64,000 bases of DNA. Source: an uncultured Pseudomonadales bacterium. Lineage in GTDB: Bacteria > Patescibacteriota > Microgenomatia > UBA1400 > PJMF01. Location: the NCBI GenBank assembly GCA_964648715.1, contig CAZYNM010000006.1:15355-79354 (forward strand), read 5' to 3'. This document shows, in pieces, positions 1,497 through 23,750 of this stretch. The notes below the pieces were generated by a model. It saw only the letters and a list, made by a program, of their open reading frames with translations, was not told the origin of the DNA and ran no database searches. The translations under genes and the position numbers were made by a program. Numbering within the stretch: position 1 is the stretch's first letter; every line of letters begins with the position of its first letter.

Positions 1497-3249
1497 AGTT
1501 TTTATGTGAGTACATACGAATTATTGACTCACTGCCATTCTTAGCCTGGCGTTCTGCAATAACACCTTTAATACCATAGGCTTCATTTCTGGATTGTGAT
1601 AACTCAAGGAAGTTTTTAATCTTGAGTGGTGGACTCGATTTGTTGACGTATGCAAAATCAATTTCTTTACCTTCCTTTTGAGCTTTTTGCATTGCGTTAA
1701 ATGTGTGTGGGTTTGGATTAGTCTTATGAAAGGTGGAAAGATCAATGAAAGGTGCTTTTTCTAGGTTTACATGTTGCAACTTATCTTCAGGAATACCGTC
1801 TTGAACTCCCTCAGTCATTGTTGGGTAGTAGGTGGTTAATCCTGTGCGATTGTCTTCATATTTGTATGCACCGCCAGAGACAGACACGATTCCTTGTTTA
1901 GCGTTCTCGAGAGTTACACCAAAACCCTTGTTTGATAAGTTGGTAGCAAACTCAGAGTCAGGTTTTTTATTTCTAGCTGTATATATAGTAGATTCTTTAA
2001 CAGGCCTCATGTCTGGTAACTGGTCGAGAATGTCTGTTGATTTACTATCCTTTGCAGATGCAAAAAGATTTCTTGTCTTATTTCCCAAAGTTGCACTTAA
2101 ACTTTTACCAAATGCTGCATTCTTGAAGTCTTTGAAACTTGAGCTGATGGGTGTGCCAACTGCTCGAGATGATACTGCTGCAATCATATTGCCAGACATA
2201 GCCGTCCAGACATCACCAAATATCTTGGCTACCAACATATTTACACCACCAAGGAAGAACAAGAAGCCTGTATAGAAAAAAAGTAAGCCAACACTCGGGC
2301 CTTGAGCTTGTAGGATGCTAGCGAAAATATCAGTAGAGATTGCGAAACCAAGGGCAAAAGCTGGTTGTTGAATTAAGAATGTAAACCAGGTTTTAAAGTA
2401 TGTCTGTACGATGGTCTGGGTTCGTTCAGTCAATGCAAAGGGTATGACAATTGGGTAGATTACTCCTAAGAACAGCAAGGTTGCAAAGCGTATTACAAAT
2501 TGATATCCCAGGTATAAGAATCCACACAAGAGAAATAAGAAAGTGATTGCAAATAAGAATATCTGGACGATGAACTTACCGAGTGATCGGAAGATACCAC
2601 CTTGTAAGGCTACCTCAAAGGATGGAATACCAAATTTTTCTGAGTTTTCATTATTTGCGATAGCTTCCTGAGATTTATCAAAATAATCATTGAGAAAGCC
2701 AGTAAACTTCTGTGTTTCGGATATCTGCTTCACTAGTAGATTATTGAACTGAATAGTATAGGAAAGAACTGTTGGTACAGTGATAAATAAGGCTATGACA
2801 ACAATAAAACGAATGGCAAACGATTTAAGTTCATATGTATTGTCACTACCAATTTTTGTTACTGCAAAAACTGCTATAACGATGGCTAAGATTGGAATAG
2901 CTATCTGGTGAAATACGTTTCTATACTTTGTAACACCAGGTATGGTCGAGTCATCTTTTAATTTGATACTGTCAGCAAATGGGTCAGGTGTGTAGAAGAT
3001 AAAACCGCCAAGGAGTGAGTCAAAACCTTCAATAAAGCTTTTTAGTAGGATGATGATGGAAGATGGCTCATTATGTACTGAGAATTCATTACTATATTGA
3101 ACTTGAGGTGGAGGCGTGGGGGTAGGTGCTTCTTCTGCTAAAGCTATATGTGGGACAAATAAAAATGTAACGATGCTTATGAGCATCACAACGATTGTTT
3201 TCATAAAATCGCAGGAAACAATCGGTTGCCTTGATTTAGTTTGTGCCAC
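1474..3249 (-). CDS. VirB6/TrbL-like polytopic inner-membrane T4SS protein with signal peptide and Pro-rich N-terminus.
   Basis: Cleavable-looking signal (MKTIVVMLISIVTFLFVPHIALA), PTPTPPP linker, more than 6 predicted TM helices, 591 aa. Lies between the pilin-like gene and the VirB4-like gene. Confidence 0.55.
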   Translation of the reverse strand: MAQTKSRQPIVSCDFMKTIVVMLISIVTFLFVPHIALAEEAPTPTPPPQVQYSNEFSVHNEPSSIIILLKSFIEGFDSLLGGFIFYTPDPFADSIKLKDDSTIPGVTKYRNVFHQIAIPILAIVIAVFAVTKIGSDNTYELKSFAIRFIVVIALFITVPTVLSYTIQFNNLLVKQISETQKFTGFLNDYFDKSQEAIANNENSEKFGIPSFEVALQGGIFRSLGKFIVQIFLFAITFLFLLCGFLYLGYQFVIRFATLLFLGVIYPIVIPFALTERTQTIVQTYFKTWFTFLIQQPAFALGFAISTDIFASILQAQGPSVGLLFFYTGFLFFLGGVNMLVAKIFGDVWTAMSGNMIAAVSSRAVGTPISSSFKDFKNAAFGKSLSATLGNKTRNLFASAKDSKSTDILDQLPDMRPVKESTIYTARNKKPDSEFATNLSNKGFGVTLENAKQGIVSVSGGAYKYEDNRTGLTTYYPTMTEGVQDGIPEDKLQHVNLEKAPFIDLSTFHKTNPNPHTFNAMQKAQKEGKEIDFAYVNKSSPPLKIKNFLELSQSRNEAYGIKGVIAERQAKNGSESIIRMYSHKNYEKRKNI

Positions 3250-3520
3250 CTACGAATTGTTTTAATACACTGGCAATAGTTGCCGCTCCGAAAACTAAAA
3301 GACCACCGATCAAAATATTAAAAATCCAACCTTTAAGTCTTGATTTTCTTTCAGTATCATCACCGCTAGCGATAAGAGCGATACCAAGAGCTGCGATTGA
3401 AAGAGCCATTACTGGAAGAGAAAAATATTGCAGGGTTTTAACGATACCCCATAGCAGAGAATCTAAATTTGCAAACTGAATTGGTTGTGCACTGTCATAC
3501 CCTGGTATCTGTGTGTCCAT
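3236..3520 (-). CDS. Small two-TM VirB2/TrbC-like T4SS pilin-type protein.
   Basis: 94 aa with two hydrophobic helices separated by a short charged loop (GDDTERKSRLKG). First gene of the T4SS operon. Confidence 0.45.
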   Translation of the reverse strand: MDTQIPGYDSAQPIQFANLDSLLWGIVKTLQYFSLPVMALSIAALGIALIASGDDTERKSRLKGWIFNILIGGLLVFGAATIASVLKQFVGGTN

Positions 3521-4093: not shown

Positions 4094-6997
4094 CTATTCA
4101 TATCGCAATGCATCCAAAGCCGATATCTTGGTGGCTCTTTTGGCAGGATAAATACCCGTTAAAAGTCCAACAATAACAGATATAGCTAAAATAAGAATAA
4201 CAAAGGTATATGGTATGAAGGTAATATCTAAAAAGCCGTAGCCTTTTGACAACGCATACGTAGAAAGGATAAACGAGGTCGCTTTGCCAGCAGCATAGCC
4301 AACAAATAAGCCACCAACACCACCCATGAAGCCCATGGTCATAGATTCAGTAAGGTAAAGATTTTCTACTTCTTGTGCTTTCATACCAATAGCTTTCATC
4401 ATGCCTACCTCATGTGTACGCTCAAGAAGTGAAACAGTCAAGGTATTTAGCATACCAAGTGCTGCAACTGCAAGAGCAACAACGCCCAAGACACCGAGTA
4501 AAAAGCGGAGAGTCGCAAATAGATTCTCGATTTGTGAGACAGTATCTACTACTGAGGTTGTTTTAAACCCTTGTAACTCAATCTGTTTTCTTGTTTGTGG
4601 TAATACCGACTGATCATTTACAACAATTTTTGCTTGTGAATAGGTTGAGATCCCCATTTGTTTAATATCGCGAAGCGGGACATATAGAATAGGTGTCTTT
4701 GTATCGGGAGTGACCCCAACGATTGTATATTCAATCGGCACTGATTCAATTTTCTTACCATCAGCAAGTAAATCTCCAGTGGCAATAAATGATATTTTAA
4801 ACTTTTTACCAACTCCTGCACTCTCTGCAATACCAAGCACTCTAAGCAAGGATTTATTGACAACAGCTTCACGAGTGATTGTATCTGGTAACTCAATCTT
4901 ACGTGTTGAACCCGTTGCAGATACACTACTTGAACCGTCAATGCTAGTAATATCTATAAATCCGGAGTCAGAGGTCTTTTGGCTTGCAGCAGCAGTTGCG
5001 ACATCTTCAGCGGTTAGTTCATTAGATATGGTAGCCTGTGCAAGTGTAGTAGAAACACCGAGTACCGATCCAGACCCATAGACTTCAGCCAAATTTATTG
5101 TTCGATCAACTTTCATATTCAATTCAGCAAAATATCCCTCTTCAGTTATTTGTTTACCATTACTATCTTTCTTCTCTTTGTATACCATTTTTCCCGACTC
5201 ATCGGTGGTGCGCTCCCAGAGAAGCACTTTACTTTGTAGCCACAAACCAAGTTCTTTGTTATCCGAAGTTTTACCTGCTGAACCAGCTTTATCATCAGGA
5301 TACGAATCTCCCCAATACTCCACTGCATCACTGACCCCTTCAACTCTTCTGGTATATCCAAGAACTTCTCCATTAACGGATGGTTTTGTACGTATACGAA
5401 CATACTCTTCGGGGTCAATAGTGTAGGTGACTTTACCAATTTCATCACCAGCAACGGCTGTTTTAAACTCACGCTGTGTAGAAACTCCAGCTACCATACC
5501 CCGATGTGTTGTGTCTGCATCAGTGATAGGAATGCCCAACTCATTACTAGAAAATATTTTCCCTTCGGCAGGTCGAATTGCTGATTCCAATAAATAATCA
5601 GCCATAACCCCGTACACAGCGACATCACTATTTGAGTTTTGGAAACTTATTTTCCCGACCACACCAACAACAGGTAGCACCTTTGATACACCGGAAATGT
5701 TGCTAAATGAAGCAACTGCTTCATCATTGAGTCTGATATTTGTTGCAACAGCGGGTGAGGCATCTATTTGTCTCATCTCTTCAAGACGTGCAACTCGAGA
5801 AATTACCAATTTTTCAAGACCATAGCCAATCGAAATTAAAAACACTATGGCTGCAACACCGATTGTCATACCGCCTACGGTTATAATGGTACGTGTTTTT
5901 TTCGCAAACATGTTCTTGAGTGATAAATCGATTAAGTCAACTCGTGAGATCGTTTTCTTATCTCGTGTTTCTAGCACTCTAATTAATTTGAAATAAAAGC
6001 TATCAACCACAGGCAAAAATTTTCGCTTTACCACATTCGGTACAAATTTTAATTTAAGTACTCCATCGCTTAATTTCTTGCCTAAATAAACAATCAGTAA
6101 TGATAAGAATCGAACTATCTGCCCAATGTTACTTAGTAAAAATGGTAAAGTTTTGCGAAGTCTAAATATATTGAGGAAAGAGAATAACCAATGAACCCGT
6201 GAAGTACGTTTTTCTTTCTTTTGTAAGCGCGTACCTGCAATACTCATTTCTTGTTTTAAAACAATTCGTTCAAGGAGTAATTGTTTTAATTCTGAAGCCG
6301 ATTTTCCAGCTGTTTCAATATTGCGAACAATGCGTCCATTAAACATTTGGATAATGCTTTTGGCATAATCCACATTGTCAATGTTATGGGTTACCATGAT
6401 GATGGTAGTACCTTTTTCATTCAATTTTCTGAAAAGCTCCATGAGCTCGATACCGCTTTGATAATCTAGATTACCCGTCGGCTCATCAGCAATAATTACT
6501 TTAGGATCAGTGACTAGCGCACGTGCCAAGGCTACTTTTTGCTGCTGACCTGAAGAAAGTTCTGTCGGGAAGTAATCTGCCCAATCGCTTAATCCAACAA
6601 TATGCAGGCAGTCATGCGCTTTAAGTATCGCTTTTTGTTTCTCAACACCCAGTAGTGATAGGGCAAATGCAACATTTTCAACAACGGTGAGCGATTTAAT
6701 CCAGTTCGGTTGCTGGTAAATCATACCTATATTTTTTTTACGAAACTCAGACCTGTCGTCTTCGCTATACACATACAAATTCCAATCAAAAAAACGAGCA
6801 TTACCACTAGTTGGTGCTTCCAACCCTAATATGACATGAAGCATAGTTGACTTACCACAACCAGAGGGACCAAAAACGATTGCAAAATCGCCATCATTAA
6901 TCTCAAGATCAACACCATGCAACACTACAACATCCTGATTTTTAACCTCAAAGGCTTTAACAATTTTTTGCAGTGTAATAATAACTCTTGGTTTCAT
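4094..6997 (-). CDS. MacB-type ABC transporter with ATPase fused to FtsX-like permease and a large extracytoplasmic domain.
   Basis: Walker A GPSGCGKST, signature LSGGQQQKVALARAL, Walker B IIADEPTGNLD at the N-terminus. C-terminal four-TM FtsX-type permease. Confidence 0.85.
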   Translation of the reverse strand: MKPRVIITLQKIVKAFEVKNQDVVVLHGVDLEINDGDFAIVFGPSGCGKSTMLHVILGLEAPTSGNARFFDWNLYVYSEDDRSEFRKKNIGMIYQQPNWIKSLTVVENVAFALSLLGVEKQKAILKAHDCLHIVGLSDWADYFPTELSSGQQQKVALARALVTDPKVIIADEPTGNLDYQSGIELMELFRKLNEKGTTIIMVTHNIDNVDYAKSIIQMFNGRIVRNIETAGKSASELKQLLLERIVLKQEMSIAGTRLQKKEKRTSRVHWLFSFLNIFRLRKTLPFLLSNIGQIVRFLSLLIVYLGKKLSDGVLKLKFVPNVVKRKFLPVVDSFYFKLIRVLETRDKKTISRVDLIDLSLKNMFAKKTRTIITVGGMTIGVAAIVFLISIGYGLEKLVISRVARLEEMRQIDASPAVATNIRLNDEAVASFSNISGVSKVLPVVGVVGKISFQNSNSDVAVYGVMADYLLESAIRPAEGKIFSSNELGIPITDADTTHRGMVAGVSTQREFKTAVAGDEIGKVTYTIDPEEYVRIRTKPSVNGEVLGYTRRVEGVSDAVEYWGDSYPDDKAGSAGKTSDNKELGLWLQSKVLLWERTTDESGKMVYKEKKDSNGKQITEEGYFAELNMKVDRTINLAEVYGSGSVLGVSTTLAQATISNELTAEDVATAAASQKTSDSGFIDITSIDGSSSVSATGSTRKIELPDTITREAVVNKSLLRVLGIAESAGVGKKFKISFIATGDLLADGKKIESVPIEYTIVGVTPDTKTPILYVPLRDIKQMGISTYSQAKIVVNDQSVLPQTRKQIELQGFKTTSVVDTVSQIENLFATLRFLLGVLGVVALAVAALGMLNTLTVSLLERTHEVGMMKAIGMKAQEVENLYLTESMTMGFMGGVGGLFVGYAAGKATSFILSTYALSKGYGFLDITFIPYTFVILILAISVIVGLLTGIYPAKRATKISALDALRYE

Positions 6998-7015: not shown

Positions 7016-10000
7016 TTACTTTAAAATATCCAAAAATCCAAATATATCCGATAAATTACCAACAACCAAATCAAGTGCAGATTCAGTTGATTTTGGTGCA
7101 ATAGTAACGGTATCAATAGACTTACCTGAATTGCCTGCTTTGTCTTTTGAAAGAACTCGCAAGTGGTAGACCTTTGATGGTGTTAGGTCGGAAATTATAA
7201 CCAAATGATTCAAGGTCAAGTTGGTATCTTCTTGTGTTTTTTGAGGATAGTTTTCCCCCGTACCTTCGCCAAACTCAATCTGGGAACTGGCAGGCTCATC
7301 GGTATCCCAAGATACGATCAGTTGTGCACGGGCTTCTTGACCTGCACCAGATACAGGAGGGACTGTCGTTCCTTCAATCTTGAGATTAGATATCTGTGGA
7401 GGCCTGGTGTCTGTAGCCGTAGTAAATTTTTGGCTGTCTGATGAAGCTTCATTACCAATGGCATCTCGACCCTTAACAATCATCAAATAATCGGTTTCTG
7501 AACGTAGTCCTTTCACCAGTAATTTATGTTCACCTTTAACAAGCGCAATATTTACCTCATCACGGGCTGCACTCGTCTCACCTTGAGGATAATAGGTAAT
7601 GATAGAGGAAATCTCGGTATTAGACTGCCAAGTAACTAGTACGGTTGGTTGTGCAGTACCTCGGACTTCTTGGACACGAACATTAGAAATTTTTGGTCTT
7701 GGATAGGTTGTGAAATCAAGAATTGTACCTTCGTACTCTGAATTCTCACTATCGAAAGCATTAATTTTATAAAAATATTTAGTGCCGTCTTCAAGCCCTG
7801 TAAGCTCCATGGTATAGGTAGTTTCGCTGGTTGATGTAGCAATTTCTTTGACACCACCAAAACCGGTGGTTTTACCATAGTAAATCTTTACTTTGCTTGC
7901 ACCTTTGGAAGTGAGTTGAATGATTGCATTACTCAAACCAATATTTTTGGCAGCTACATCTTGCACCGTTGGGGAAGGACTTGTTTTGAATGTTTTTTCT
8001 TCACTTTGTCCCGTATTACCGTCTTCATCTGTCCACTTTGCACGATAATAATAGGTGGTACCCGGAGTAAGATTAGTTAAATTAATCGTATGATCCTTGG
8101 TTTGTGCTGAGTTTGATGGTTCTTCATCAAAATATGAACCAGATTTTGTACCATAGGCGATCTTGCTGTCAGAGTTCCTATCTGTCACCCAAGTGATTTT
8201 GGACTTTTTAGTAGTAATATCTGTTGCTGTTGGACCAGAAGATAATCCTGCGGCTTCAAAATACTTGCCTGTTGGCAAACCTGACACAGTGGATGACACG
8301 GCAGAACAGTTATTAGCACTATCACAAGCCTTTACACAATAATAATAATTCTGCTCGGAAAGACTCGTATCCGAATAGGATGTACCTGCAGTAGATCCTA
8401 TCTGTGTAAATGAAGAAGGCGAACCTGAACAACTTGCATTACTGGTTGATCTAAGTACTTTATAAGAACTAATACCAGCACCAATACTTTCTGGAGCATC
8501 CCATGAAATAGCCAGTTTCCAGTTTGAAGTCGCTTTGATTGAAATATCTGCCACATCTACATTGCGAGGAATACCAGGTGCAGAACCAGTATAGGCAAAA
8601 GTCACACTAGTATAAGTATCATAGTTTATATTTCCCGCTTCATCTTTTGCAACTAAATACAGGGTGTTTGTGCCGGGTTGAGTGGCAAACGCATCTTCTG
8701 CCAATGTATTGGCACCTGCTGCTGTATAGGTACAATTTGCAAGAGTAGGTACTGTGTTGATGGTATAACAGAAGCGTATGTTTCCTGCTTGGCCTGTAAA
8801 TGCTGAAGGATCATCCCAGCTAAAAGCATACGCATTGGTAGTACCATTCTCAGGCGTTACAACGAGATTGCGTGGTGCAGAAGGGGCAGTAGTATTGATT
8901 TTTAACGCATTTGAAACATAGGTATTTGATACATTGCCTGCAGCATCCCAGGTACGCAAATATACTAAGTTTGTACCCTCTGCGATGGCTGCATAGTCGG
9001 GTGTTTCCTGTGTAGCGTATGAACCATCATTCGTCAAAAGATCAGCTACGTCTTGTGTCCCTGTATGACTATCTCCGTACCAGGTACCACTTGTGCCGAT
9101 ACGATATTGCAAGCCTGCAACACCAGAATGGCTATCGCTTGGGCCATCACTGCCAGAGGATGGCCATAAAAAGGTCGTGCTTTCTGTAGCTATATAATCA
9201 CTTGGTACTGATAAAAAGGCAGGGTTAGCGGGGGCAGTATTATCAAATCTAAAATGGAAACTTGCGCTAGAACCTGCATATACATTTCCTGCACCATCTA
9301 TGGCTTTAACATTCAAATAATATGCATCATTGCTGGAAGTAAGCCACGGACTACCACGATATGAAAGTGTAGCAAAGTCTATAGAATTGGTACTTACAAT
9401 GAATTGACAGGTCGTACCAGTAGTTGAAACAGGAGAAGTGCCCAGTAGTCCCTTCGCAGTAGCAGGGTTCCCACTTTCGTCACTGCCCAAATACAAACAA
9501 TAACCAGAGATGCCAGAACCACCTACGTTATCCGCTCCTGCATCCCAAGAAAAATATGGTGCACTGCCATTTGTCCAACCATTGCTACTCATGCTTGCTC
9601 CACCTACTGTTTTTTTCATTATCACATTTGATGCATTGGTTGTTGGTGCAGTAGTATCAGTCGTGAGTCCAATTGCAATGCTCGTTATCGCAGGTAGATC
9701 CGTCCCACCAAATGCCATAATAGCCTTGACTGATATTTTTTGTGAGACGACTGGTAATGCCTGCATGGCTGTAGGAGTAAGCTCGGCTGCTGTGTTTACA
9801 TGCGTCGTGGTATTTGAGGCGGTTGCCCAAGCAGAGCCATCCCAATATTTCCATGCATTGCCACTTTGACAAGTTGCTCCATCATCTGTACAAATTTGAT
9901 ATTTCACCGAAGCATTCCCGCTGGCTGTGACATTGGCGGTAAAAGAATCCCAACTATTGACCTGACTATTACTATAGGCAGAAGTAGTATAGACGCTATA

Positions 10001-11608
10001 TGTACCAGCTTTTGAAAGGGTGAAATCATCAAGTTTGACGGTTTTACCTTGCTTGACCAATACACCATAGTCTCGTGATTCATTGGCTCCAGTAACGGTT
10101 CCTGATAGTTTCCACCAGCCAGAACCTATATTGGTGTATGTAGTAGAAACAACAGCCCCATTATAATACAACTGAGCAATAGAAGTGCTGACGGTACCGC
10201 CTTCGTTACCTGCTGTTGTGTCATACACAAAAACGGAAAAATCGAGCGAGTCGGCTGCGCCGACATTTATAGATTGTGTTACCTTAGCATCAGCTAAGCT
10301 ACCTACAGCTATGGTATTACCACCACCGTTTCTGCCAGATGAAGATGAGTAAGATTGAGAGATAGCTACGGAATCACTGGCGCACCTAAAACCGAAGTAA
10401 CTGCTCCGAGTTGCAGGTGTATAATTCAAAAAGAGTGAGAATGCTCCTGTATTTGAGGTATTACCCCAATCGCCACCGCGCAGGAAACCGTATAAAGTAG
10501 AAGCAGCAGAGCCGCTATTATGATAAATACGTCCCACACCATGGGTTGCATTATAGGTATTATTAGCAGGTCGGACTAAGTCATAAGAAAGGCTTCCATA
10601 GCTCGTTAAAGCTGTAAATTCCCGCCAGTTAAAACCACTCTGGCCACTCACATCAGGCTGATTAGCTTCCGTGATGGTGTCGCTGTTCCATTCCCAGACG
10701 TTTCCTGCTATATCCCAGATATATGCACCATTTGAGAGTGCTAGTACTCTTTTTTGATTACCAACACTTCCAGACGTATTGTTACTTGTATTTGTTGGAC
10801 AACCAGAAGGCGCCTCGGTACTGCCTCCTGAGTCGGTATAGGCACAAGCGTTGTTTCCTGTATCAGTAGAAGATGCCTGTAATGATTGTGCCGGTGAATT
10901 ATCGTTATGACCAGCAAACAAATAACCGCTTCCCACACTACCCCCTGTCCAGTTGCCTGTTTGTGCTTCTGCATTGCGTGCAATGGTCATCCATTCGGCA
11001 TTGGTGATAAGATGGTAGCCGCTACCAAGTGCAGAACAAGCCTCTATTGCATCAAAATCTGTATTGTTTTGTGAAATTCGCACCCATGGTCTTCCAGAAG
11101 GAATTGATCGTGCTTGATATCTAGTCTGTGAATTCGCGCCTGCCCAGCCATCGGCTGAGCCAGCACCTCCATCAGCCACTACACTATTGGTATTGGTATC
11201 CCATGCTTTTGCCTCGTACTTCATAACCAAGAAATTGGAAGTGCTGTAGGTGGCATTACCAGGAACCTCCACCCATCCTGTGGCAGGCACCGAAGAAACT
11301 GACCAGGAAGAATTGTCTGAGCTAAAAGATGGATTGGTAATTTTATTTGCTCCTGTGATTGGCCTTGCTCCAGAATTATCTACCGCAACAAGGGTATTGT
11401 CATAGGTATAACTACCAGCATTGGCAGTATTAAATGTCCAGGTTTTGGTAGTATCGTTGGCTGCAAAAATACTGGGTAAGTGAACAGTGGTAAGGTAGGT
11501 AGCACCTGCAAAACCGAAGATCATGAAAAGAATCGCAGCCAGATTAAACTGGAAACGCGAGTAATGATAGCGCTTTTCAAAAAAATATCTATATATGGTT
11601 TTATACAT
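7016..11608 (-). CDS. 1530-aa cell-surface protein: N-terminal signal anchor, FGE-sulfatase/C-type-lectin-fold domain (aa ~150-412) carrying the DGR variable repeat, then ~1100 aa of fibronectin-III/Ig-like repeats. This is the DGR target protein.
   Basis: Motifs IWDIAGNVWEWNSD and LRGGDWGN...GFRCAS typical of the FGE-sulfatase fold. Repetitive T/S/G-rich Fn3-like modules. VR at 10377-10488 lies in this ORF. Confidence 0.8.
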   Translation of the reverse strand: MYKTIYRYFFEKRYHYSRFQFNLAAILFMIFGFAGATYLTTVHLPSIFAANDTTKTWTFNTANAGSYTYDNTLVAVDNSGARPITGANKITNPSFSSDNSSWSVSSVPATGWVEVPGNATYSTSNFLVMKYEAKAWDTNTNSVVADGGAGSADGWAGANSQTRYQARSIPSGRPWVRISQNNTDFDAIEACSALGSGYHLITNAEWMTIARNAEAQTGNWTGGSVGSGYLFAGHNDNSPAQSLQASSTDTGNNACAYTDSGGSTEAPSGCPTNTSNNTSGSVGNQKRVLALSNGAYIWDIAGNVWEWNSDTITEANQPDVSGQSGFNWREFTALTSYGSLSYDLVRPANNTYNATHGVGRIYHNSGSAASTLYGFLRGGDWGNTSNTGAFSLFLNYTPATRSSYFGFRCASDSVAISQSYSSSSGRNGGGNTIAVGSLADAKVTQSINVGAADSLDFSVFVYDTTAGNEGGTVSTSIAQLYYNGAVVSTTYTNIGSGWWKLSGTVTGANESRDYGVLVKQGKTVKLDDFTLSKAGTYSVYTTSAYSNSQVNSWDSFTANVTASGNASVKYQICTDDGATCQSGNAWKYWDGSAWATASNTTTHVNTAAELTPTAMQALPVVSQKISVKAIMAFGGTDLPAITSIAIGLTTDTTAPTTNASNVIMKKTVGGASMSSNGWTNGSAPYFSWDAGADNVGGSGISGYCLYLGSDESGNPATAKGLLGTSPVSTTGTTCQFIVSTNSIDFATLSYRGSPWLTSSNDAYYLNVKAIDGAGNVYAGSSASFHFRFDNTAPANPAFLSVPSDYIATESTTFLWPSSGSDGPSDSHSGVAGLQYRIGTSGTWYGDSHTGTQDVADLLTNDGSYATQETPDYAAIAEGTNLVYLRTWDAAGNVSNTYVSNALKINTTAPSAPRNLVVTPENGTTNAYAFSWDDPSAFTGQAGNIRFCYTINTVPTLANCTYTAAGANTLAEDAFATQPGTNTLYLVAKDEAGNINYDTYTSVTFAYTGSAPGIPRNVDVADISIKATSNWKLAISWDAPESIGAGISSYKVLRSTSNASCSGSPSSFTQIGSTAGTSYSDTSLSEQNYYYCVKACDSANNCSAVSSTVSGLPTGKYFEAAGLSSGPTATDITTKKSKITWVTDRNSDSKIAYGTKSGSYFDEEPSNSAQTKDHTINLTNLTPGTTYYYRAKWTDEDGNTGQSEEKTFKTSPSPTVQDVAAKNIGLSNAIIQLTSKGASKVKIYYGKTTGFGGVKEIATSTSETTYTMELTGLEDGTKYFYKINAFDSENSEYEGTILDFTTYPRPKISNVRVQEVRGTAQPTVLVTWQSNTEISSIITYYPQGETSAARDEVNIALVKGEHKLLVKGLRSETDYLMIVKGRDAIGNEASSDSQKFTTATDTRPPQISNLKIEGTTVPPVSGAGQEARAQLIVSWDTDEPASSQIEFGEGTGENYPQKTQEDTNLTLNHLVIISDLTPSKVYHLRVLSKDKAGNSGKSIDTVTIAPKSTESALDLVVGNLSDIFGFLDILK
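10377..10488 (-). repeat. DGR variable repeat (VR), encoding aa ~374-411 (GFLRGGDWGNTSNTGAFSLFLNYTPATRSSYFGFRCAS) of the target protein.
   Basis: 112-bp match to 13692-13803 with 14 mismatches, every one at a TR adenine on the coding (minus) strand. TR AAC/AAT codons correspond to S/S/Y and other residues in the VR. Confidence 0.8.
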
Positions 11609-11775
11609 GACAGGTTTTCATAAATCCAATACACCAGCCCATTGGCTAGTCTACATATCCATAATACAGGAATCGTTCCTTACATTTCAACTGATAAAGT
11701 ATGTCAAATTTCGTATTCTAGAATTCGTATTCTAGAATGGAGTTTTATATTACATTTTGTTATACTAAACTTATT

Positions 11776-12069
11776 ATGAACATCAAAAGTATCCAAAATT
11801 TAGCTCTCCCCATACTAAGAAAATACAATGTAACTAAAGCAGCACTCTTTGGTTCTGCTGTCCGTGGAGAAATGAATGATCATAGTGACATTGACTTGTT
11901 AGTTGAATTGCCAACAGATGTTCATGGATTTGAGTATGTGGACTTAAAAGTTGGCTTACAAGAAGATTTAGAATCAACATTTGGGAAAAATGTGGATCTA
12001 GTCGAGTATAAACTTATTAAAGAATCACTTAAAAGCTATATTTTACCTGAACAGGTTAGAATTTTATAA
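11776..12069 (+). CDS. mnt: MNT-type nucleotidyltransferase antitoxin (minimal nucleotidyltransferase).
   Basis: LFGSAVRGEMNDHSDIDLLVEL nucleotidyltransferase motif. Directly followed by the HepT gene with a 1-nt gap. Likely start is MNIKS at 11776, not the upstream ATG at 11737. Confidence 0.75.
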   Translation: MNIKSIQNLALPILRKYNVTKAALFGSAVRGEMNDHSDIDLLVELPTDVHGFEYVDLKVGLQEDLESTFGKNVDLVEYKLIKESLKSYILPEQVRIL

Positions 12070-12417
12070 ATGGAAAAGAACCCTTTAATTTATTTAGATG
12101 ATATATTATTCTCTATTACCTTAATAGAAGGATATATCACTGATGTGGCACAAGAAGAATTCCTTGGCAGCTACGATATTCAAGATAAGGTCTTGAGAAG
12201 ACTAGAGATAATTGCAGAAGCGGCTAAGAAGCTTCCCATAGAAATAAGAAGCAATAATCCTCAAGTTCCATGGAAAAGTATAATCGGATTACGAAATATC
12301 ATAGCTCATACCTATGATGAAGTAAATTTAGAAGAGGTTTGGAGTATAGTAACATTGCACCTACCTAGAACTAAGATCGAGCTAGAAAAAATTAAGTCAG
12401 ATACATCAAAAAGGTAG
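12070..12417 (+). CDS. hepT: HepT/DUF86 HEPN-family RNase toxin.
   Basis: GLRNIIAHTYDEV matches the HEPN Rx4HxY motif. 115 aa. Paired with the MNT gene upstream. Confidence 0.75.
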   Translation: MEKNPLIYLDDILFSITLIEGYITDVAQEEFLGSYDIQDKVLRRLEIIAEAAKKLPIEIRSNNPQVPWKSIIGLRNIIAHTYDEVNLEEVWSIVTLHLPRTKIELEKIKSDTSKR

Positions 12418-13563
12418 TCTTAACTGCTCACATTTGATATCTTTTCTACGGATATTATCCAGCATTCGTTCACGCTTTTGCGAAAACAAAAAGCTTTGCA
12501 AATGATAAGCGTTGGCATGCTGAATGTGCCCCACGAATGAGTTGCAGGTCAACTGTAGTTTTTCTTTGGTAAACCTATCTTCACGTACCATGCGCTTTCT
12601 TTTTTCCATCCGCTTCTGAAATCTACGAAGCGTCTTACCTCGTATAAGGATATGATCATAAAAAATTCGATATCCCACAAATGGGACACCAAAGGATACA
12701 TTTTGAATAAAAACTTTTTCAGGGTGCAGTGTGAGCTTTAGGTTGTCTTCTAAAAATTGACCGAGGGTGTTTCTTACTTTAATCAAATGCTCTTTGTCAG
12801 GATGAATAATCAGAAAATCATCCATGTATCTTGCGTACCACTTTTCTTTGAGAGTATGTTTTACATACTGATCAAGCTCATTTAAATAGACATTGGCAAA
12901 AAGTTGGCTCGTGAGATTACCTATTGGAATGCCCTTTCTCTCTTGCAGATTTACGACGTGCTCAGGTAAATTTTTGAGTTGCCCATTGTTTTTATACACT
13001 TTGTGATTAGTGACTATGGTTGTAATAAGTTTTAAAATTTCTGGGTCAGTAATTTTCTCTTGTAAAATTGTAATGAGTACATCCCAAGAGATACTTTGAA
13101 AATACTTTCTAATATCACACTTTAAATAGTAGATTGGAGTTTGAGCACCATTTTTGCAACGAGCTGCCATCAAAAATTTTTTGACCCGTTGCAAACCAAA
13201 ATGAGTGCCTTTCCCCTTACGACACGCATACGAGTCATAAATGAAGTCTTTATCAAGTCTCGGTTCAATCAAGTTAACAAGTGAGCGGTGAACAATCCTA
13301 TCTCTAAAATTAGGAGCAGCTATATGCCTCTTCTTGGGATCAGTTACAACAAAATACATATATGGCTTTGGTATATATTTTCCTGACCGGAGAAGATATT
13401 GAAGGAGGCATATATGATCTTCCAAGTTAAAATCATAGGAAAGGGCAACTGGCTTAGAACGCTTACCTAAACGCACTTTGTTGTACGCCTTAAATAAAGA
13501 AGCTAAATTTGAAAACTGTATAAAATCTTTCATAAACCTATTTACCCTGCCTTGATTACTCAA
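12406..13563 (-). CDS. Diversity-generating-retroelement reverse transcriptase.
   Basis: RT motifs present, including YMDD (RYMDDFLII) and the motif-4 signature IGNLTSQ (GxxxSQ) characteristic of DGR RTs. Size ~380 aa. Adjacent TR and Avd. Confidence 0.85.
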   Translation of the reverse strand: MSNQGRVNRFMKDFIQFSNLASLFKAYNKVRLGKRSKPVALSYDFNLEDHICLLQYLLRSGKYIPKPYMYFVVTDPKKRHIAAPNFRDRIVHRSLVNLIEPRLDKDFIYDSYACRKGKGTHFGLQRVKKFLMAARCKNGAQTPIYYLKCDIRKYFQSISWDVLITILQEKITDPEILKLITTIVTNHKVYKNNGQLKNLPEHVVNLQERKGIPIGNLTSQLFANVYLNELDQYVKHTLKEKWYARYMDDFLIIHPDKEHLIKVRNTLGQFLEDNLKLTLHPEKVFIQNVSFGVPFVGYRIFYDHILIRGKTLRRFQKRMEKRKRMVREDRFTKEKLQLTCNSFVGHIQHANAYHLQSFLFSQKRERMLDNIRRKDIKCEQLRLPF

Positions 13564-13691
13564 GGCAGGAATACAGGTGTTTTGTTTGCCCGTCTGAAAA
13601 AAATAAAACGGGCAGGAAATGAATATTGTGATCTATGAATCCGGAATGCATGTCCGTAAACATGCACTGCTCATTCTGGCGTCATTGATCG

Positions 13692-13803
13692 CTGGCGCAC
13701 CTAAAACCGATGTTATTGTTCCGATTTGTAGGTGTATTATTCAAATTGAGTGTGAATGCTCCTGTATTTGATGTATTATTCCAATTGCCACCGCGCAGGA
13801 AAC
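13692..13803 (-). repeat. DGR template repeat (TR), located between avd and the RT gene.
   Basis: Cognate of the VR at 10377-10488. Adenine-rich on the coding strand with AAC/AAT codons. All mismatches to the VR fall at its adenines. Confidence 0.8.
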
Positions 13804-13846
13804 AGACAACCGTTCTATTCACTCCCCATATACACAGGCTATCATA

Positions 13847-14188
13847 TTACATAGCCTTCATCCAAGCTGTAAGCATTCGGCCGATTTCATTTACCTTTTC
13901 CGCAGCAAATGTGTATTGCTTGATGCTCATCAGTTTTACATCCTTAGTCAACCGTATAAGAATTCGCAAGGTATCAAGATCACGAGAAACTTTTAGTTGT
14001 AATTGTCTTCTAATTTGTAGATCTCGCTCTGTGTTTGCATGAATAATACCGATTAAAACCTGTAATGCTGTGGAGTGGATATGATGACCTAAAATTGGTC
14101 GATGATTGCGTGGGAGTCTGTTTAAGAGATGATAAAGCCAGACCACTAAATCATATGTCTTTTGAAAAATAAGTAGTTTTTCCTCCAT
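13847..14188 (-). CDS. avd: Avd-like accessory variability determinant (four-helix-bundle, 23S rRNA-IVS-protein family).
   Basis: 113 aa, basic, helical, with sequence KTYDLVVWLYHLLNRLPRNHRPILGHHIHSTALQVLIGIIHAN resembling the Avd family. Sits immediately 5' of TR-RT in the canonical avd-TR-RT order. Confidence 0.65.
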   Translation of the reverse strand: MEEKLLIFQKTYDLVVWLYHLLNRLPRNHRPILGHHIHSTALQVLIGIIHANTERDLQIRRQLQLKVSRDLDTLRILIRLTKDVKLMSIKQYTFAAEKVNEIGRMLTAWMKAM

Positions 14189-14450: not shown

Positions 14451-15233
14451 ATGAAGTTATCAGACAACGCACGAGCAAGTCTTGATCGAGTGATTGAAAG
14501 GTTCAAAAGCGGAGACCTTTCACCCATTACAAATATAGCTAGATTTGAGATCCCTGAGGATGCGCCATGTTTTAAATGGTCATTTTCAAATAAAGTACTG
14601 GCATATATCCAATCTGGTGAGCTTGATTGTAGAGGTTTTAATCAGTGGCAAGATGCAGGCCGAAAGGTCAAGAAAGGTAGTAAAGCCGTCTTTATCTTAA
14701 GACCGCGCACAATGAAGTTTGAAAAAGAAGGAGAAGAGCCACAAGTCATCTGTGTGGGTTTTGCACCAATACCAGTATTTGCAGCATCAGGTACAGAAGG
14801 TGAAGGCACTCTGGCAGTGTACCAGCCTAGAGAACTGCCCCCACTGTATGACGTTGCCCAGAGGTTAGGGGTAGAAGTGCGATATATGCCAGTATCCCCC
14901 GATAAGCTAGGAAGCTGTAAGCCAGACGGCACGCGTATTACTATCGGTACAGAAGCCCCAGAAGTGTTTTTTCATGAGCTAGCGCACGCCATACACGCCA
15001 AAATTGAAGGCACGTTAAAATCTGGTCAAGATACTACACAAGAAACCATAGCCGAGTTTACATCTTCCGTGCTAATGGATTTATACGGACTCAAGGACAC
15101 CAGCGGCAACACTTGGCAATATATCAAGATGTACGCAAGTGACCCACTTGAGGCAATAACCAAAGCAATGGCAACAGTCGAAAAAGTATTACAAGTTTTA
15201 CTTGCCCAAGAGAATACAGAGGCTACAGTATAA
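14451..15233 (+). CDS. ardC: ArdC-like antirestriction / zincin protein: N-terminal ssDNA-binding ArdC-N domain plus HExxH metallopeptidase domain.
   Basis: FNQWQDAGRKVKKGSKAVFIL matches the ArdC-N core motif. HELAHAIH is the zinc-binding HExxH motif. Typical conjugative-element gene. Confidence 0.65.
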   Translation: MKLSDNARASLDRVIERFKSGDLSPITNIARFEIPEDAPCFKWSFSNKVLAYIQSGELDCRGFNQWQDAGRKVKKGSKAVFILRPRTMKFEKEGEEPQVICVGFAPIPVFAASGTEGEGTLAVYQPRELPPLYDVAQRLGVEVRYMPVSPDKLGSCKPDGTRITIGTEAPEVFFHELAHAIHAKIEGTLKSGQDTTQETIAEFTSSVLMDLYGLKDTSGNTWQYIKMYASDPLEAITKAMATVEKVLQVLLAQENTEATV

Positions 15234-15420: not shown

Positions 15421-16173
15421 TTATTTTTTTGCCAAGTACCCTGCATCTACAATTAAATTGTGCCCTGTTACCATTTTGGATTGGTTCGAGCTTAAAAATA
15501 TAACAGCATTCGCTATATCGTCGGGTTCGACAATAGACTCAAGCAATGTGCCATTAATATTTTCTTCAAGTTCTTCTTGTGGTGCTGTAGCCCAGTATCC
15601 AGCTCTAACTGCACCAGGTGATACTGAATTTGCTCGCCCCCAAGGAGCCATTAATTTGGCATAAGCCTGAGTTGAATTTATTATTGCTGCTTTTGATGCA
15701 GCATAAGTTAACGCATCATGTTGTCCACTTAGTCCATGCCTAGATGCAATATTAACAATTACACCAGTGTTCCTTGACTGCATATGCGAAATGGCATACT
15801 TGCATACAGACATAGCAGAGATCAAATTTTGTTGCAGGCTTTTCATCCACAGATCCACTTCACCATCCCACACATCTCCATCCATGTACCTGCCAGCGTT
15901 GTTAACTACAATATCAATGTGTTCAAACTCTGAGGTAGTGAAATCAATGAGCCTTTTTGCTTCTTCATCCTTGGTTAAATCTACTTGAAATACTTTAATA
16001 TCTGACCCTGCTTGCCCCAGCTCAGTAACTACAGATTGAGCACCTTCCTGATTTGTTTTATATGAAAAACAAACCTTTGCGCCTTCATGGGCAAAAGCAG
16101 CAACAGTTGCTTTACCGATACCACTTGAGCCACCTGTTACAAGTACAACTTTATCTTTTAATCCTGTTTGCAT
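15421..16173 (-). CDS. Short-chain dehydrogenase/reductase (SDR) family oxidoreductase.
   Basis: VVLVTGGSSGIGKA Rossmann motif, NNAG motif, catalytic YxxxK (YAASK). Confidence 0.85.
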   Translation of the reverse strand: MQTGLKDKVVLVTGGSSGIGKATVAAFAHEGAKVCFSYKTNQEGAQSVVTELGQAGSDIKVFQVDLTKDEEAKRLIDFTTSEFEHIDIVVNNAGRYMDGDVWDGEVDLWMKSLQQNLISAMSVCKYAISHMQSRNTGVIVNIASRHGLSGQHDALTYAASKAAIINSTQAYAKLMAPWGRANSVSPGAVRAGYWATAPQEELEENINGTLLESIVEPDDIANAVIFLSSNQSKMVTGHNLIVDAGYLAKK

Positions 16174-16194
16174 ATGTCCATTCTATCAAAAATA

Positions 16195-17088
16195 TTACTT
16201 CGCGGTTATTAGAGTTAAACCAAGTACACCTATAAATGCCAATACTATCCCAACATATTTTCGTACTGATATTTTTTCTTTTAAAATTATACGAGAAAGA
16301 ATAACAGTGAGTGCTCCATTTGTTCCTGTTATTGGTGAAGCAATTGTTGCTGGGGCAAATGAGAAGCTCAACCATAAGAAACCTGTACCCATAATATTGA
16401 ATAGACCTCCAAGTAAAGCATGTCTGTAGTCTTTGAAATTTTTTACAACACCCTTTAATGCTTTTCCTATAGACTCTCTTTCAATTTTTAGATAGGTAAT
16501 GGCTACTGGTATTTGAATTATCCCGAGAGAGAATAGAAAACTAAAATCACCAGATCTATTTATATATCCTTTTGATACTGCGTCAGATAGACCAATTGCA
16601 ACAGCTGCAATAAAAGGCCAAAGGATTCCTTTAGTAACTTTCAACTCCTCGCTAGATATTTTGTCTGGAAGGCTAGCAATAATGCTACCTAAGATAGCAA
16701 AAGCTATAAACGAAAGACTTGTAGTGGTGACAATCTCACCATTAAATAGTAGAGAAAAAATAATGGTATATACAGGATATGTTGCTAGTACCGTAGTTGT
16801 TACAGCTAGCTCACCGTGAGAAAGTGCATAGAAGACTATTGCTTCAGATAAAATTGCAGAAATAAGAGCAAATAGCATTGCTTCTGACCAGCTTACTGTT
16901 TGAGAAATTCCCATAAAAAAAGCTAAGGGCAGCCAAATAACCAAGCCAAATAGCGCATCAAACAAAAATGCAACTGAAGGTTGCATATCTTTGTAACTTT
17001 TGCGTAATGAAAGTTGTGAGAAAGCAATCAGAACGCTACACAATATTGCAAAAATTATTCCCAACATAGATATATTATATTTGAACAA
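16195..17088 (-). CDS. EamA/DMT-superfamily transporter.
   Basis: ~10 TM helices in two repeated halves. 297 aa. Confidence 0.7.
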   Translation of the reverse strand: MFKYNISMLGIIFAILCSVLIAFSQLSLRKSYKDMQPSVAFLFDALFGLVIWLPLAFFMGISQTVSWSEAMLFALISAILSEAIVFYALSHGELAVTTTVLATYPVYTIIFSLLFNGEIVTTTSLSFIAFAILGSIIASLPDKISSEELKVTKGILWPFIAAVAIGLSDAVSKGYINRSGDFSFLFSLGIIQIPVAITYLKIERESIGKALKGVVKNFKDYRHALLGGLFNIMGTGFLWLSFSFAPATIASPITGTNGALTVILSRIILKEKISVRKYVGIVLAFIGVLGLTLITAK

Positions 17089-22167: not shown

Positions 22168-23739
22168 ATGAGTACAAATAATAATGAATCAGTAAAAACA
22201 GCGGTTATATATTTAAGAGTTTCTACTGAAGAACAGGTGGATAATTTTTCATTGGATACTCAAGAAGATATTTGTCAAAAGGAAGCTATTAAGCGCGGGA
22301 TTGAAGTTATCAAAGTTTTCAGAGAGGAAGGTAGATCAGCCAAAACAATCACAGGTCGTCCAGTATTGATTGAGATGCTAGAGTACTGTAGAAAAAACAA
22401 GAAAAAGATTGATGCAGTCATAGCGTATCGAGTAGATCGTATCTCACGCCAGACACAAGATTATTTAGCTATCCGAAGAAAGCTTACAGAGTGCGGTATA
22501 ACTTTGATATCTGCTACTGAACCCACTGGTAATAGCCCTACAGAAAAACTTGTTGAAACGATTCTGGCAGGTTTTGCACAACTAGATAATGATGTCAGAA
22601 GTGAACGCACAAAGAATGGAATGAGAGCAAGATTCCTGGCTGGTCTTCCAAATGGAAAAGTGCCTCTTGGATATCTAACTATAGATGGCTGTGCAGTCAA
22701 AGACCCAGAAAAATGGGATCTTGTAAAAAAAGCATGGGATTTAATGGAGACAGGTACGAAAACACTGAATGAAATTGCAGTACTTATGAATGATTGGGGT
22801 TTAAGGAATGTAATTGGAGGCAAAGAATGTATTTTCAGAGCTCAGACTGCAAGTAGACTATTTAAAAATAAGTTTTACGCAGGTGTGTTGACTTCACCAC
22901 GTTACCCCGATGAGGCTAAAGGTCAACACTTACAAATGATCTCAGAGGCTCAATACTATAAGGTGCAAGCCGTTATTGCTGGTAGAAATAACAGTATTAA
23001 TATTCCTGTTGTTAGAAGGAATAGAAACAACTCTGATTTTCCATTAAGAAGAATTATTAAGTGTGGTGGTTGTGGTGCACCATTTACAGGTGCATGGAGT
23101 AAGGGCAAGCGTGCAAAGCATGCTTATTATTTCTGTAGAAGTAGGTGTGGTAAACCATCTGTCAGAGCGTATGATGTTGATTTTTCAGTGGTTGAATTAC
23201 TCAGGAGAGTAACACCCAAGCAAGAAACACTAAATGCATTTATTGCCTTACTAAGAGCCAACTATTATAAAAGAGTTGCCAGTCTACAAAAGAAAAAAGA
23301 ACATGCTGATGTTGAACTAAAGAGACTACAATCCCTTAGAAAAGGATTAGTCGAGAAAAATCTATTAGGTATATATAGTGATGAAATATTTAAAGAACAA
23401 AATAAGATAATTGAAGAGCAAATCATAACCCTTGAGATAACAAAGGACGATGCTTTGCTTTCCAAATACAATCTCGAAGCAATAATTGCTTTTATGAAGG
23501 ATAAATTTGCTGATTTAGGAAAAACGTATCAAGAATCAGATATTGAGCAGATAAAAGTATTGTTGTGTTCGATATTTGACTCAGAACTCACTTGGGACTA
23601 TTCTGGCATTTCGAACACCCAAATTAATGCGGTATATCAATACATTTATGACTTTGAAAGTGTTGATATCGCAAATGGTGACCCCATGGAGAATCGAACT
23701 CCAATTACAGGGATGAAAACCCTGCGTCCTAACCGTTAG
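22168..23739 (+). CDS. Large serine recombinase (integrase).
   Basis: N-terminal resolvase domain with catalytic Ser in AVIYLRVSTEEQ and the YRVDRISR motif. Recombinase domain. Zinc-ribbon cysteines CGGCG...CRSRCG. Coiled-coil C-terminus. 3' end overlaps tRNA-Glu. Confidence 0.85.
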   Translation: MSTNNNESVKTAVIYLRVSTEEQVDNFSLDTQEDICQKEAIKRGIEVIKVFREEGRSAKTITGRPVLIEMLEYCRKNKKKIDAVIAYRVDRISRQTQDYLAIRRKLTECGITLISATEPTGNSPTEKLVETILAGFAQLDNDVRSERTKNGMRARFLAGLPNGKVPLGYLTIDGCAVKDPEKWDLVKKAWDLMETGTKTLNEIAVLMNDWGLRNVIGGKECIFRAQTASRLFKNKFYAGVLTSPRYPDEAKGQHLQMISEAQYYKVQAVIAGRNNSINIPVVRRNRNNSDFPLRRIIKCGGCGAPFTGAWSKGKRAKHAYYFCRSRCGKPSVRAYDVDFSVVELLRRVTPKQETLNAFIALLRANYYKRVASLQKKKEHADVELKRLQSLRKGLVEKNLLGIYSDEIFKEQNKIIEEQIITLEITKDDALLSKYNLEAIIAFMKDKFADLGKTYQESDIEQIKVLLCSIFDSELTWDYSGISNTQINAVYQYIYDFESVDIANGDPMENRTPITGMKTLRPNR

Positions 23740-23750
23740 ACGATGGGGCC
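23676..23750 (-). tRNA. tRNA-Glu (anticodon UUC), with encoded CCA.
   Basis: Hand-folded cloverleaf: acceptor GGCCCCA/TGGGGTC, anticodon stem CAGGG/CCCTG with loop TTTTCAT, T-loop TTCGATT, discriminator A, then CCA. Confidence 0.8.

Follow-up and report, generated by a model that had tools for sequence, protein, structure and literature searches.

We analysed a 64,000-nt stretch of contig CAZYNM010000006.1 (assembly GCA_964648715.1, positions 15,355 to 79,354), called the window below, in which positions 7016-14188 had been proposed to hold a complete diversity-generating retroelement (DGR). The locus comprises a gene for an accessory variability determinant (avd), a template repeat (TR), a reverse transcriptase (RT) gene and a long target gene that contains a variable repeat (VR). 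On the minus strand the order is avd, a 43-nt gap, the TR, a 158-nt spacer and the RT gene, with the target gene further downstream. We read these parts as a complete and probably active DGR in a bacterium of the Candidate Phyla Radiation (CPR). Its features are as follows.

13847-14188, minus: avd, 113 residues, pI 10.2
13692-13803, minus: TR, 112 nt with 38 adenines, beginning 43 nt past the avd stop codon
13534-13691, minus: structured spacer RNA (Sp-like part of the DGR RNA), 158 nt from the TR to the RT start
12406-13533, minus: DGR RT, 375 residues from an ATG at 13533; the mechanically delimited open reading frame (ORF) reaches a TTG at 13563
7016-11608, minus: target gene, 1530 residues, acidic (pI 4.9)
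10376-11281, minus: predicted ligand-binding domain of the target with a C-type-lectin (CLec) fold resembling formylglycine-generating enzyme (FGE), residues ~110-411, with the VR at its C-terminal end
10377-10488, minus: VR, 38 codons, coding for residues 374-411 of the target
10334-10393, minus: candidate homing element resembling an initiation of mutagenic homing (IMH) sequence, made up of the GC-rich VR 3' end GGTGCGCCAG and ~43 nt of downstream coding sequence SDSVAISQSYSSS

The cassette, its repeat pair and their variation

A repeat scan of the window identified a direct repeat in two copies (10373-10488 and 13688-13803) that are 87% identical, and alignment bore out the coordinates given for the 112-bp repeat in the original prediction. 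When the minus strands of this 112-nt core are aligned, the TR and VR differ at 14 positions, all 14 of which are adenines in the TR, as had been claimed. Given 38 adenines in 112 nt, the hypergeometric probability of this outcome is 4.0e-8. The TR adenines are replaced by G six times, by T six times and by C twice. In the reading frame of the target, 11 of the 38 TR codons are AAY, and the mismatches fall mainly at codon positions 1 and 2. The AAC and AAT template codons that had been pointed out are seen at residues 402-404, where the TR reads N-N-N (AAC AAT AAC) and the VR S-S-Y. No stop codon can arise from any TR codon through a change of adenine, and the theoretical VR repertoire amounts to ~10^17.6 peptides.

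The positions of the two repeats also correspond to their presumed roles. The TR is non-coding and lies between avd and the RT gene, 158 nt ahead of the RT ATG, and the VR is in frame inside the 1530-codon ORF, 3.3 kb downstream of the TR on the same strand. The TR pattern with each A read as N, scanned over the whole window, matches these two copies and no second VR. The element therefore has a single target in the window.

The ORF ahead of the TR, predicted to be a basic Avd-like protein of ~110 residues, scores 91.0 bits against the NCBIfam equivalog model NF033474 DivGenRetAVD (cut-off 80) and 74.7 bits against Pfam bAvd (threshold 40; 1e-20), so that both profile comparisons identify it as Avd. 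The RT matches Pfam RVT_1 (1.2e-22) and carries IGNLTSQ (motif 4) at residue 204 and YMDD at residue 236. This numbering refers to the 375-residue form starting at the ATG at 13533, which is used by gene callers and homologues and is probably correct, rather than the form starting at the TTG at 13563. The closest PDB sequence is 8ub7_A (328 residues; E=9e-42); other matches are group II intron RTs (1.9e-16), 5hhj/5hhl, annotated as retron-type (~1e-13), and Drt2 (~3e-7). The identifier 8UB7 gave no match as a literature query, and we identified the chain as the Bordetella phage enzyme bRT from its numbering instead. In the alignment, its residues I181, Q187, D215 and D216 sit on IGSLTSQ and YMDD, and these are the active-site residues given in a cryo-EM preprint on bRT-Avd (10.1101/2023.10.23.563531). 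The IGNLTSQ and YMDD motifs of the window RT, both named in the original prediction, align to bRT I181-Q187 and Y213-D216. By PDB sequence search, the enzyme is thus nearer to a DGR RT than to group II intron or retron RTs. NCBIfam holds no DGR-RT model.

We examined five contigs from other samples (L001 to L005) that encode an identical Avd protein, and in each of them the TR is 100% identical to that of the window. Compared with the TR, the VR of L001 has 16 mismatches, all at A; compared with the VR of the window, it has 15 in 112 positions, each at a TR-adenine site (15/15; P=1e-8). In a BLAST alignment over 1,414 nt of the target gene, these 15 sites are the sole mismatches, with none in ~1,300 nt of flanking sequence, and the block spanning avd, the RT gene and a toxin-antitoxin pair has six mismatches in 3,676 nt. 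Divergence is thus 13.4% in the VR versus 0.12% elsewhere (6 in 5,023 nt), an approximately 100-fold difference (Fisher P=2e-21). Because the VR is so much more divergent than its surroundings and its flanks are identical, its turnover is probably more recent than the divergence of the strains. A lack of VR variation at TR-adenine sites in population data had been named in advance as one outcome that would refute the prediction; such variation was found, in two alleles. No further alleles came from a scan of JGI metagenomes with the TR pattern (A to N), and none of seven contigs with an identical MntA protein reaches the VR.

More distant relatives show the same organization. Those found through the RT include loci with RTs 72-95% identical to that of the window (L006/L015/L016, L007/L008, L009/L010, L011 and L012) and two with RTs 48-54% identical, from Nomurabacteria (L013) and Moraniibacteria (L014); L017/L018 and L019 were reached via the target. 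An avd-TR-RT cassette and a TR/VR pair are present in all of them. Mismatches fall at TR adenines in 16/16 cases in L007, 14/14 in L011 and 15/16 in L012, which gives 75/76 when pooled with the window and L001. The TR is nearly invariant in relatives with RTs 82-86% identical, and L006, L007 and L011 combine one identical TR with differing VRs. When six VRs are compared, 33 of 44 variable columns correspond to adenines of the consensus TR, and nine of the other 11 are sites at which the cognate TR itself differs.

These counts bear on the possibility that the locus is no retroelement at all, but a chance or duplicated repeat beside an RT of the group II intron or defence type, with a VR altered by ordinary mutation or recombination. 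Such a reading could appeal to the NCBIfam results, in which group II intron RT/maturase is the top match of the RT and weaker Drt and retron matches follow. All of these matches, however, lie far below their cut-offs; in the PDB comparison bRT is favoured by 25 orders of magnitude, Avd is present, and mismatches fall at adenines across the five pooled TR/VR pairs. An Rfam scan of the window yielded four tRNAs and neither a group II intron nor a retron non-coding RNA. We therefore give this explanation virtually no credence and regard it as already effectively refuted.

An alternative that keeps the retroelement is that of a relic, in which past activity is recorded, retrohoming has ceased and the two VR alleles are old variants that have persisted. 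The recovery of two alleles alone fits this scenario, as do five identical non-template substitutions that both alleles have in common, and signs of decay occur in close relatives: the TR of L009 has lost nine adenines, and stops or indels are found in the VRs of L006, L017 and L019. Against it, the window has intact avd and RT genes and an intact target ORF of 4.6 kb, the TR retains its 38 adenines and 11 AAY codons, and the excess of VR divergence between identical flanks is as described above. We consider a relic very unlikely and prefer the reading of a DGR that is probably still active.

Some of the relatives have repeats that depart from the canonical form. In L009 (GCA_964579395.1; RT 95% identical; 7819-7936 and 11133-11250), the TR departs from the family consensus at 12 positions, with G, T or C in place of a consensus adenine at nine of them, and the VR has eight non-adenine mismatches, several of them fitting the ancestral TR. 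It looks as if this TR has itself been adenine-mutagenised or overwritten, so that the template is eroding. In-frame stops occur in other TRs: L014 (~9390-9514) and L017 (7889-8008) have TAA where F-L-R-G-G has its Leu codon, and L019 (5979-6098) has TGA at a conserved Trp codon. Disrupted VRs are found in L017 (TGA and a 1-nt insertion; 11148-11268), L019 (TGA; 11127-11246) and L006/L016 (2-nt insertion; 8129-8247 in L006). Many database homologues also stop inside the VR, with the ending '...YAF*' or the frameshift tails 'APVIP*' and 'LSLRQ*'. The disruptions of TRs and VRs could be due to DGR-driven ON/OFF switching, to decay of the elements or to assembly artefacts in a hypervariable region. 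An alternative genetic code, with UGA read as Gly or Trp, is an unlikely explanation for the TGA codons in VRs, since code 11 gives long, uninterrupted ORFs for the neighbouring genes.

The target protein and its internal variable repeat

The hydropathy profile of the target shows a single hydrophobic helix, which is N-terminal (residues ~21-43). Its C-terminal ~400 residues (from ~1130) contain repeats of the fibronectin type III (FN3) or Ig type, matching Pfam fn3, Pur_ac_phosph_N, PhoD_N and Ig_Rha78A_N. The VR-bearing domain had been predicted to adopt an FGE-sulfatase/C-type-lectin fold ending in GFRCAS. The ending is present, but the match to Pfam FGE-sulfatase stays below the gathering threshold, and the fold assignment therefore rests on a structure model. 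Likewise, a PDB sequence search with the N-terminal region of the target gave nothing significant (E>0.4), which made a model necessary. Homologues of residues 41-470 were collected, and 78 of them were aligned as input for AlphaFold2. The model has a mean pLDDT of 77, with values mostly of 85-98 over residues ~110-410 except in short loops.

Compared with the PDB by Foldseek, the model has as its top match TaqVP, the DGR variable protein of Thermus aquaticus (5vf4; E=1.3e-9, probability 1.0), and then FGEs, Treponema TvpA (2y3c) and Bordetella Mtd (1yu0-1yu4). This ranking indicates that the VR codes for the final strands of a C-type-lectin fold of the FGE-like kind, a classical DGR scaffold, and the domain is accordingly modelled as such. 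The predicted fold was thus recovered in the model, with TaqVP in first place, while its Pfam support was not. TaqVP has the same FGE-like CLec subtype, with the VR in the C-terminal strands. In contrast, sequence identity between the two is ~15% and the TM-score ~0.4 over the whole model, and TaqVP is a protein of 380 residues with a C-terminal VR.

In the window the VR is internal, with 1,119 codons following it; a C-terminal position is typical of DGRs without defining them. Roux et al. (PMC8144416) described the C-terminal position as near-universal and explained it by cis elements that have to be intergenic. Internal VRs were reported by Wu et al. 2018 (PMC5758913) mainly in Ig-type targets, along with isolated CLec cases, with the remark that the IMH is then necessarily in coding sequence. 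The window resembles these cases in that its VR is followed by coding sequence, so that the IMH must lie within the ORF. It differs in the fold, since those cases are mostly of the Ig type (9/34 Ig1, 9/10 Ig2, one CLec2 and one multi-VR CLec1), whereas the target of the window belongs to a family with a CLec fold.

Intact long orthologues with an internal VR are found in L009 (1534 residues), L012 (1360), L013 (1544) and L014 (1566). A query with the junction region (residues 330-700) against 1.84 billion representatives gave 46 matches at E<=1e-30, and at least 35 representatives (of clusters at 50% identity) align unbroken across the VR into the downstream region. Continuous alignments across the junction and intact orthologues together establish, at the level of sequence, that the internal-VR form is a real family. 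It is uncommon among CLec targets and belongs to a documented category. Relatives with a true C-terminal VR exist too and are often prepilin fusions.

We rejected the idea that the window protein is a gene fusion and that homologues of ~380 residues represent the canonical short form of the target, in which the VR is C-terminal. The short ORFs are cut inside the VR, by a stop codon in L017/L018 and L019 and by a 2-nt insertion in L006/L016, and the long frame resumes afterwards. A separate observation concerns the flank of the TR (13682-13691, minus), which in the VR frame reads G-F-R-C-A-S-D-Q-stop and is like the C-terminus of short canonical relatives (P0253/P0254, ...GFRCASDQI). Owing to this resemblance to a true C-terminus, the TR may derive from a target whose VR was C-terminal.

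The spacer RNA, the candidate homing signal and the mechanism

The 167 nt between the 3' end of the TR and the start of the RT gene are predicted to fold at -60.4 kcal/mol (z=-6.2), and none of 200 shuffled sequences folds as well. A consensus fold over five loci contains 48 base pairs, six of which show compensatory double changes; the stems are kept, and the hairpin loops vary freely. Three conserved stem elements are located at ~13630-13690, 13587-13614 and 13536-13578. By analogy with known DGRs, the spacer corresponds to the expected Sp-like RNA, from which cDNA synthesis may be primed in cis.

The TR and VR have the GC-rich end GGTGCGCCAG in common, differ as C/T at position +1 and diverge completely after ...GCGCCAG(C/T)GAT. 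In a comparison of nine loci, no other part of the gene is as conserved as positions -16 to +43 relative to the VR end, where nucleotide identity is 0.89/0.80. Identity at third codon positions is 0.76/0.69 in this stretch versus 0.30-0.48 elsewhere in the gene. The conservation after the VR persists between elements whose RTs share just ~50% identity. We infer that this stretch, which codes for SD(P/S)VAISQS(F/Y)SSS, is a candidate IMH-like signal embedded in coding DNA. A hairpin or cruciform of the BPP-1 kind immediately 3' of the VR was considered and dropped.

From these parts, the element would function as follows. The avd gene, TR, spacer and RT gene would be transcribed from the minus strand. 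The RT-Avd complex would bind the structured DGR RNA and copy the TR, misincorporating opposite template adenines, and the cDNA would be cis-primed from the spacer, by homology with BPP-1. The mutagenised cDNA would then replace the homologous 112-nt VR, 3.3 kb downstream and in the same orientation. The direction of transfer presumably depends on the sequence immediately after the GC-rich end, where TR and VR differ and the VR side is unusually conserved coding DNA. As a result, about 17 codons at most, including 11 AAY codons, could be rewritten in the last strands of the lectin-fold domain of a protein that is probably secreted or membrane-anchored.

The BPP-1 DGR (mtd-avd-TR-brt) offers the closest parallel to this scheme. 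Both elements have avd, TR, spacer and RT on one strand, an Avd of the same family and RTs with IGxxxSQ and YMDD, and bRT is the closest solved RT. Both are adenine-specific, with an AAY-rich TR, a CLec variable domain, a GC-rich TR/VR 3' end and a structured spacer of ~140-160 nt. They differ in context: the BPP-1 element is carried by a phage and has its target upstream of the RT, whereas that of the window is cellular and island-borne with the target downstream. The VR of BPP-1 is at the C-terminus of a tail-fibre protein of ~380 residues and that of the window is inside a protein of 1530 residues. Furthermore, unlike in BPP-1, no hairpin was found by the VR, and a toxin-antitoxin pair lies between the RT and target genes.

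The adenine spectrum, Avd, the RT, the modelled fold and the variation in the population all agree with the complete avd-TR-RT element and VR-bearing target of the original prediction. Several points weigh on the other side. Just two VR alleles are known with this exact TR, and the evidence for activity is a comparison of contigs, neither experimental nor at read level. The best NCBIfam match of the RT is group II intron RT/maturase (127.9 bits, cut-off 300), and the FGE-sulfatase match of the target reaches 20.1 bits versus 23.3. The DNA fold directly downstream of the VR, where BPP-1 has its hairpin, is not significant (z=-1.7), the IMH is a candidate, cis-priming is proposed by homology, and promoter-like sites are not enriched over shuffled sequences. 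Lastly, the function and localisation of the target are deduced from its domains. Taking both sides together, we assign a probability of about 93% to a complete, probably active avd-TR-RT DGR in a Woesebacteria-like CPR bacterium.

The host, the genomic island and the role of the module

The region from 24 to 64 kb codes for PyrG, DnaE, GatB, IleS, FtsA and RodA, with housekeeping genes from 24.5 kb onwards. DnaE is 88% identical to that of Candidatus Woesebacteria, and the other named relatives are nearly all Patescibacteria. These gene sequences identify the host as a CPR bacterium resembling Woesebacteria. The metagenome-assembled genomes (MAGs) that contain the closest relatives of the element (L010, L011 and L012) are labelled Gammaproteobacteria or Limisphaerales, at odds with the DnaE of the window. 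The MAGs may be mislabelled or mis-binned, or the island may have spread horizontally.

The DGR is located in a stretch of lower GC content, 35-43% and mostly below 40% from position 1 to ~23.7 kb versus mostly 42-48% beyond. The other features of this stretch are as follows.

1-690: VirB4-like N-terminus
3236-3520: VirB2-like ORF of 94 residues
3680-4060, minus: stand-alone response-regulator receiver (Pfam), after the MacB-type transporter
4094-6997, minus: MacB-type ABC transporter (ABC ATPase-MacB_PCD-FtsX in one polypeptide of 967 residues; Pfam), directly after the target
11661-11690, minus: weak promoter-like site upstream of the target, TTGAAA-18-TATTAT, 10/12 consensus matches
11776/11737-12069, plus: MntA-like nucleotidyltransferase (Pfam NTP_transf_2, 3.8e-14, 53.3 bits)
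12070-12417, plus: HepT-like RNase (Pfam HepT-like, 7.2e-25, 87.5 bits)
15421-17088: cargo genes of the SDR and EamA families, absent from L001 and replaced by other cargo in L009
17097-17789: Replic_Relax, the only relaxase candidate
19114-21702: type IV coupling protein (T4CP), a clear match
22168-23739, plus: large serine recombinase, whose 3' end overlaps tRNA-Glu by 64 nt
23676-23750, minus: tRNA-Glu, at the island boundary

The island also has a TraC-like gene and a TrbL/VirB6 match below threshold (22.4 versus 25.9 bits), and its left end lies beyond position 1 of the window. The syntenic loci L009, L017 and L019 show the same gene order, and their annotations include VirB4-like, TrbC and TraC-like genes. 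The flanking genes are not the same in L006, L017 and the window, and the cargo varies from strain to strain. From its gene content, the low-GC island looks like a candidate integrative and conjugative element (ICE) with a conjugation set of the monoderm type, which might be mobile. A survey of type IV secretion systems (T4SSs) in Patescibacteria (PMC12102498) found that relaxases are mostly lacking and detected no PrgB-like adhesin, and an ICE-like island is noteworthy for that reason. A phage origin of the DGR was discarded; the nearest RT in IMG/VR is 52% identical, and there are no phage genes among the neighbours.

The MntA-like and HepT-like genes are a candidate type VII toxin-antitoxin pair, carried as cargo between the RT and target genes on the opposite strand; their NCBIfam equivalog scores, 49.6 and 47.9, are below the cut-off of 60. 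This slot appears to be a hot-spot for cargo. MntA/HepT occupies it in the window (11737-12417), L001, L007 and L009; its contents are AbiEii and a partner in L006/L016 (5449-6725 in L006), a NYN nuclease in L017 (9446-9964) and Fic, Bro-N and KilA-N proteins in L019 (7501-10004). In L011 to L014 it is empty, with gaps of 68-427 nt. L001 carries in addition a 1,315-bp element of the IS3 family (5470-6785; HTH_Tnp_1 and rve) with terminal inverted repeats TGTCAAGTACC and a 3-bp TAA target duplication, inserted at the equivalent of window position ~11680-11682. The insertion separates the -35 hexamer of the best promoter-like site from its -10 hexamer, so that expression of the target may differ between strains. 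On the other side of the cassette, a gene divergent from avd (14451-15233, plus) codes for a 260-residue protein with a HELAH motif and a sub-threshold match to the ArdC N-terminal, ssDNA-binding domain. A similar gene occupies the same place in L001, L002, L007 and L009, and a DUF2958 protein is found there instead in L017 and L019.

Every locus that reaches past the target (L006, L009, L013, L014, L017 and L019) has ABC and MacB/FtsX genes after it, fused or split. This arrangement suggests that the target and the ABC/MacB transporter form a functional unit kept across CPR classes. CPR bacteria, or Patescibacteria, are thought to depend on attachment to other cells. The likely role of the target, judging from its domains and neighbours, is adjustable adhesion to the surface of a host or partner cell, with the MacB-type transporter aiding its export or operation.

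Another view is that the diversified protein serves as the cell-contact adhesin of the neighbouring T4SS, with the DGR tuning which recipient or host cells are engaged, much as the R64 shufflon acts on PilV. The DGR-target-MacB block of the window, L009, L017 and L019 is indeed located on a recombinase-bounded island, between T4CP/Replic_Relax and the VirB2, VirB6-like, TraC-like and VirB4-like genes, and a PrgB-like adhesin is what the Patescibacteria survey did not detect (PMC12102498). However, in L013, L014 and L006/L015, which also carry the module, no T4SS genes were called in the fetched flanks, and the constant partner is therefore the ABC transporter rather than the T4SS. Moreover, the DGR target borne by a Bacteroides ICE is dispensable for transfer. 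We treat this idea as a minority hypothesis and an unlikely one. A composite scenario is distinctly unlikely, in which the target would be the missing T4SS adhesin on a bona fide CPR ICE that evolves its own host range, with an IMH-like element in a Ser-rich linker and TR stops acting as an ON/OFF switch in sister elements. Adhesion linked to the ABC/MacB transporter remains our preferred reading of the module.

Tens of thousands of DGRs have been catalogued, and the type found here is well known; what is uncommon is an internal VR in a 1530-residue protein and an island resembling a conjugative element. The window agrees with the described CPR DGRs (CPR set, PMC5758913; clade 2, PMC8144416) in host group, in being cellular rather than viral and in its CLec-type target. 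According to Wu et al. (PMC5758913), 90% of CPR DGRs are of type B3, TR-(avd)-RT, whereas that of the window is of type B1, avd-TR-RT. CPR targets are typically devoid of recognisable transmembrane or other domains (PMC8144416), in contrast with the N-terminal hydrophobic helix and FN3-type repeats found here. ICE-borne DGRs, such as those of Legionella pneumophila (ldtA) and of Bacteroides (type V pilus tip adhesins), combine conjugation genes, tRNA-adjacent integration and a surface CLec target, as the candidate ICE of the window would. They differ from the window in phylum and in conjugation machinery, which in the window comprises mating-pair formation genes of the monoderm type and a serine recombinase. 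Their targets are lipoproteins or pilins, whereas that of the window is giant, FN3-rich and coupled to MacB.

The locus leaves the understanding of how DGRs work unchanged. For the CPR/Patescibacteria it is a further DGR that is well documented and apparently active, and it provides a clean natural case of a CLec VR internal to a very long ORF, with the footprint of a candidate cis element that can be measured in coding sequence. The internal VR is relevant to the proposal that homing signals have to be intergenic and that VRs are C-terminal for this reason. In addition, relatives of the element illustrate possible modes of DGR failure or switching, through erosion of TR adenines, stops encoded in the TR and indels in the VR. 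Finally, the DGR-target-MacB module occurs across CPR classes. Its location in Microgenomates, on an island with recombinase and T4SS genes, makes that island a candidate CPR ICE and the target a candidate adhesin associated with a T4SS.

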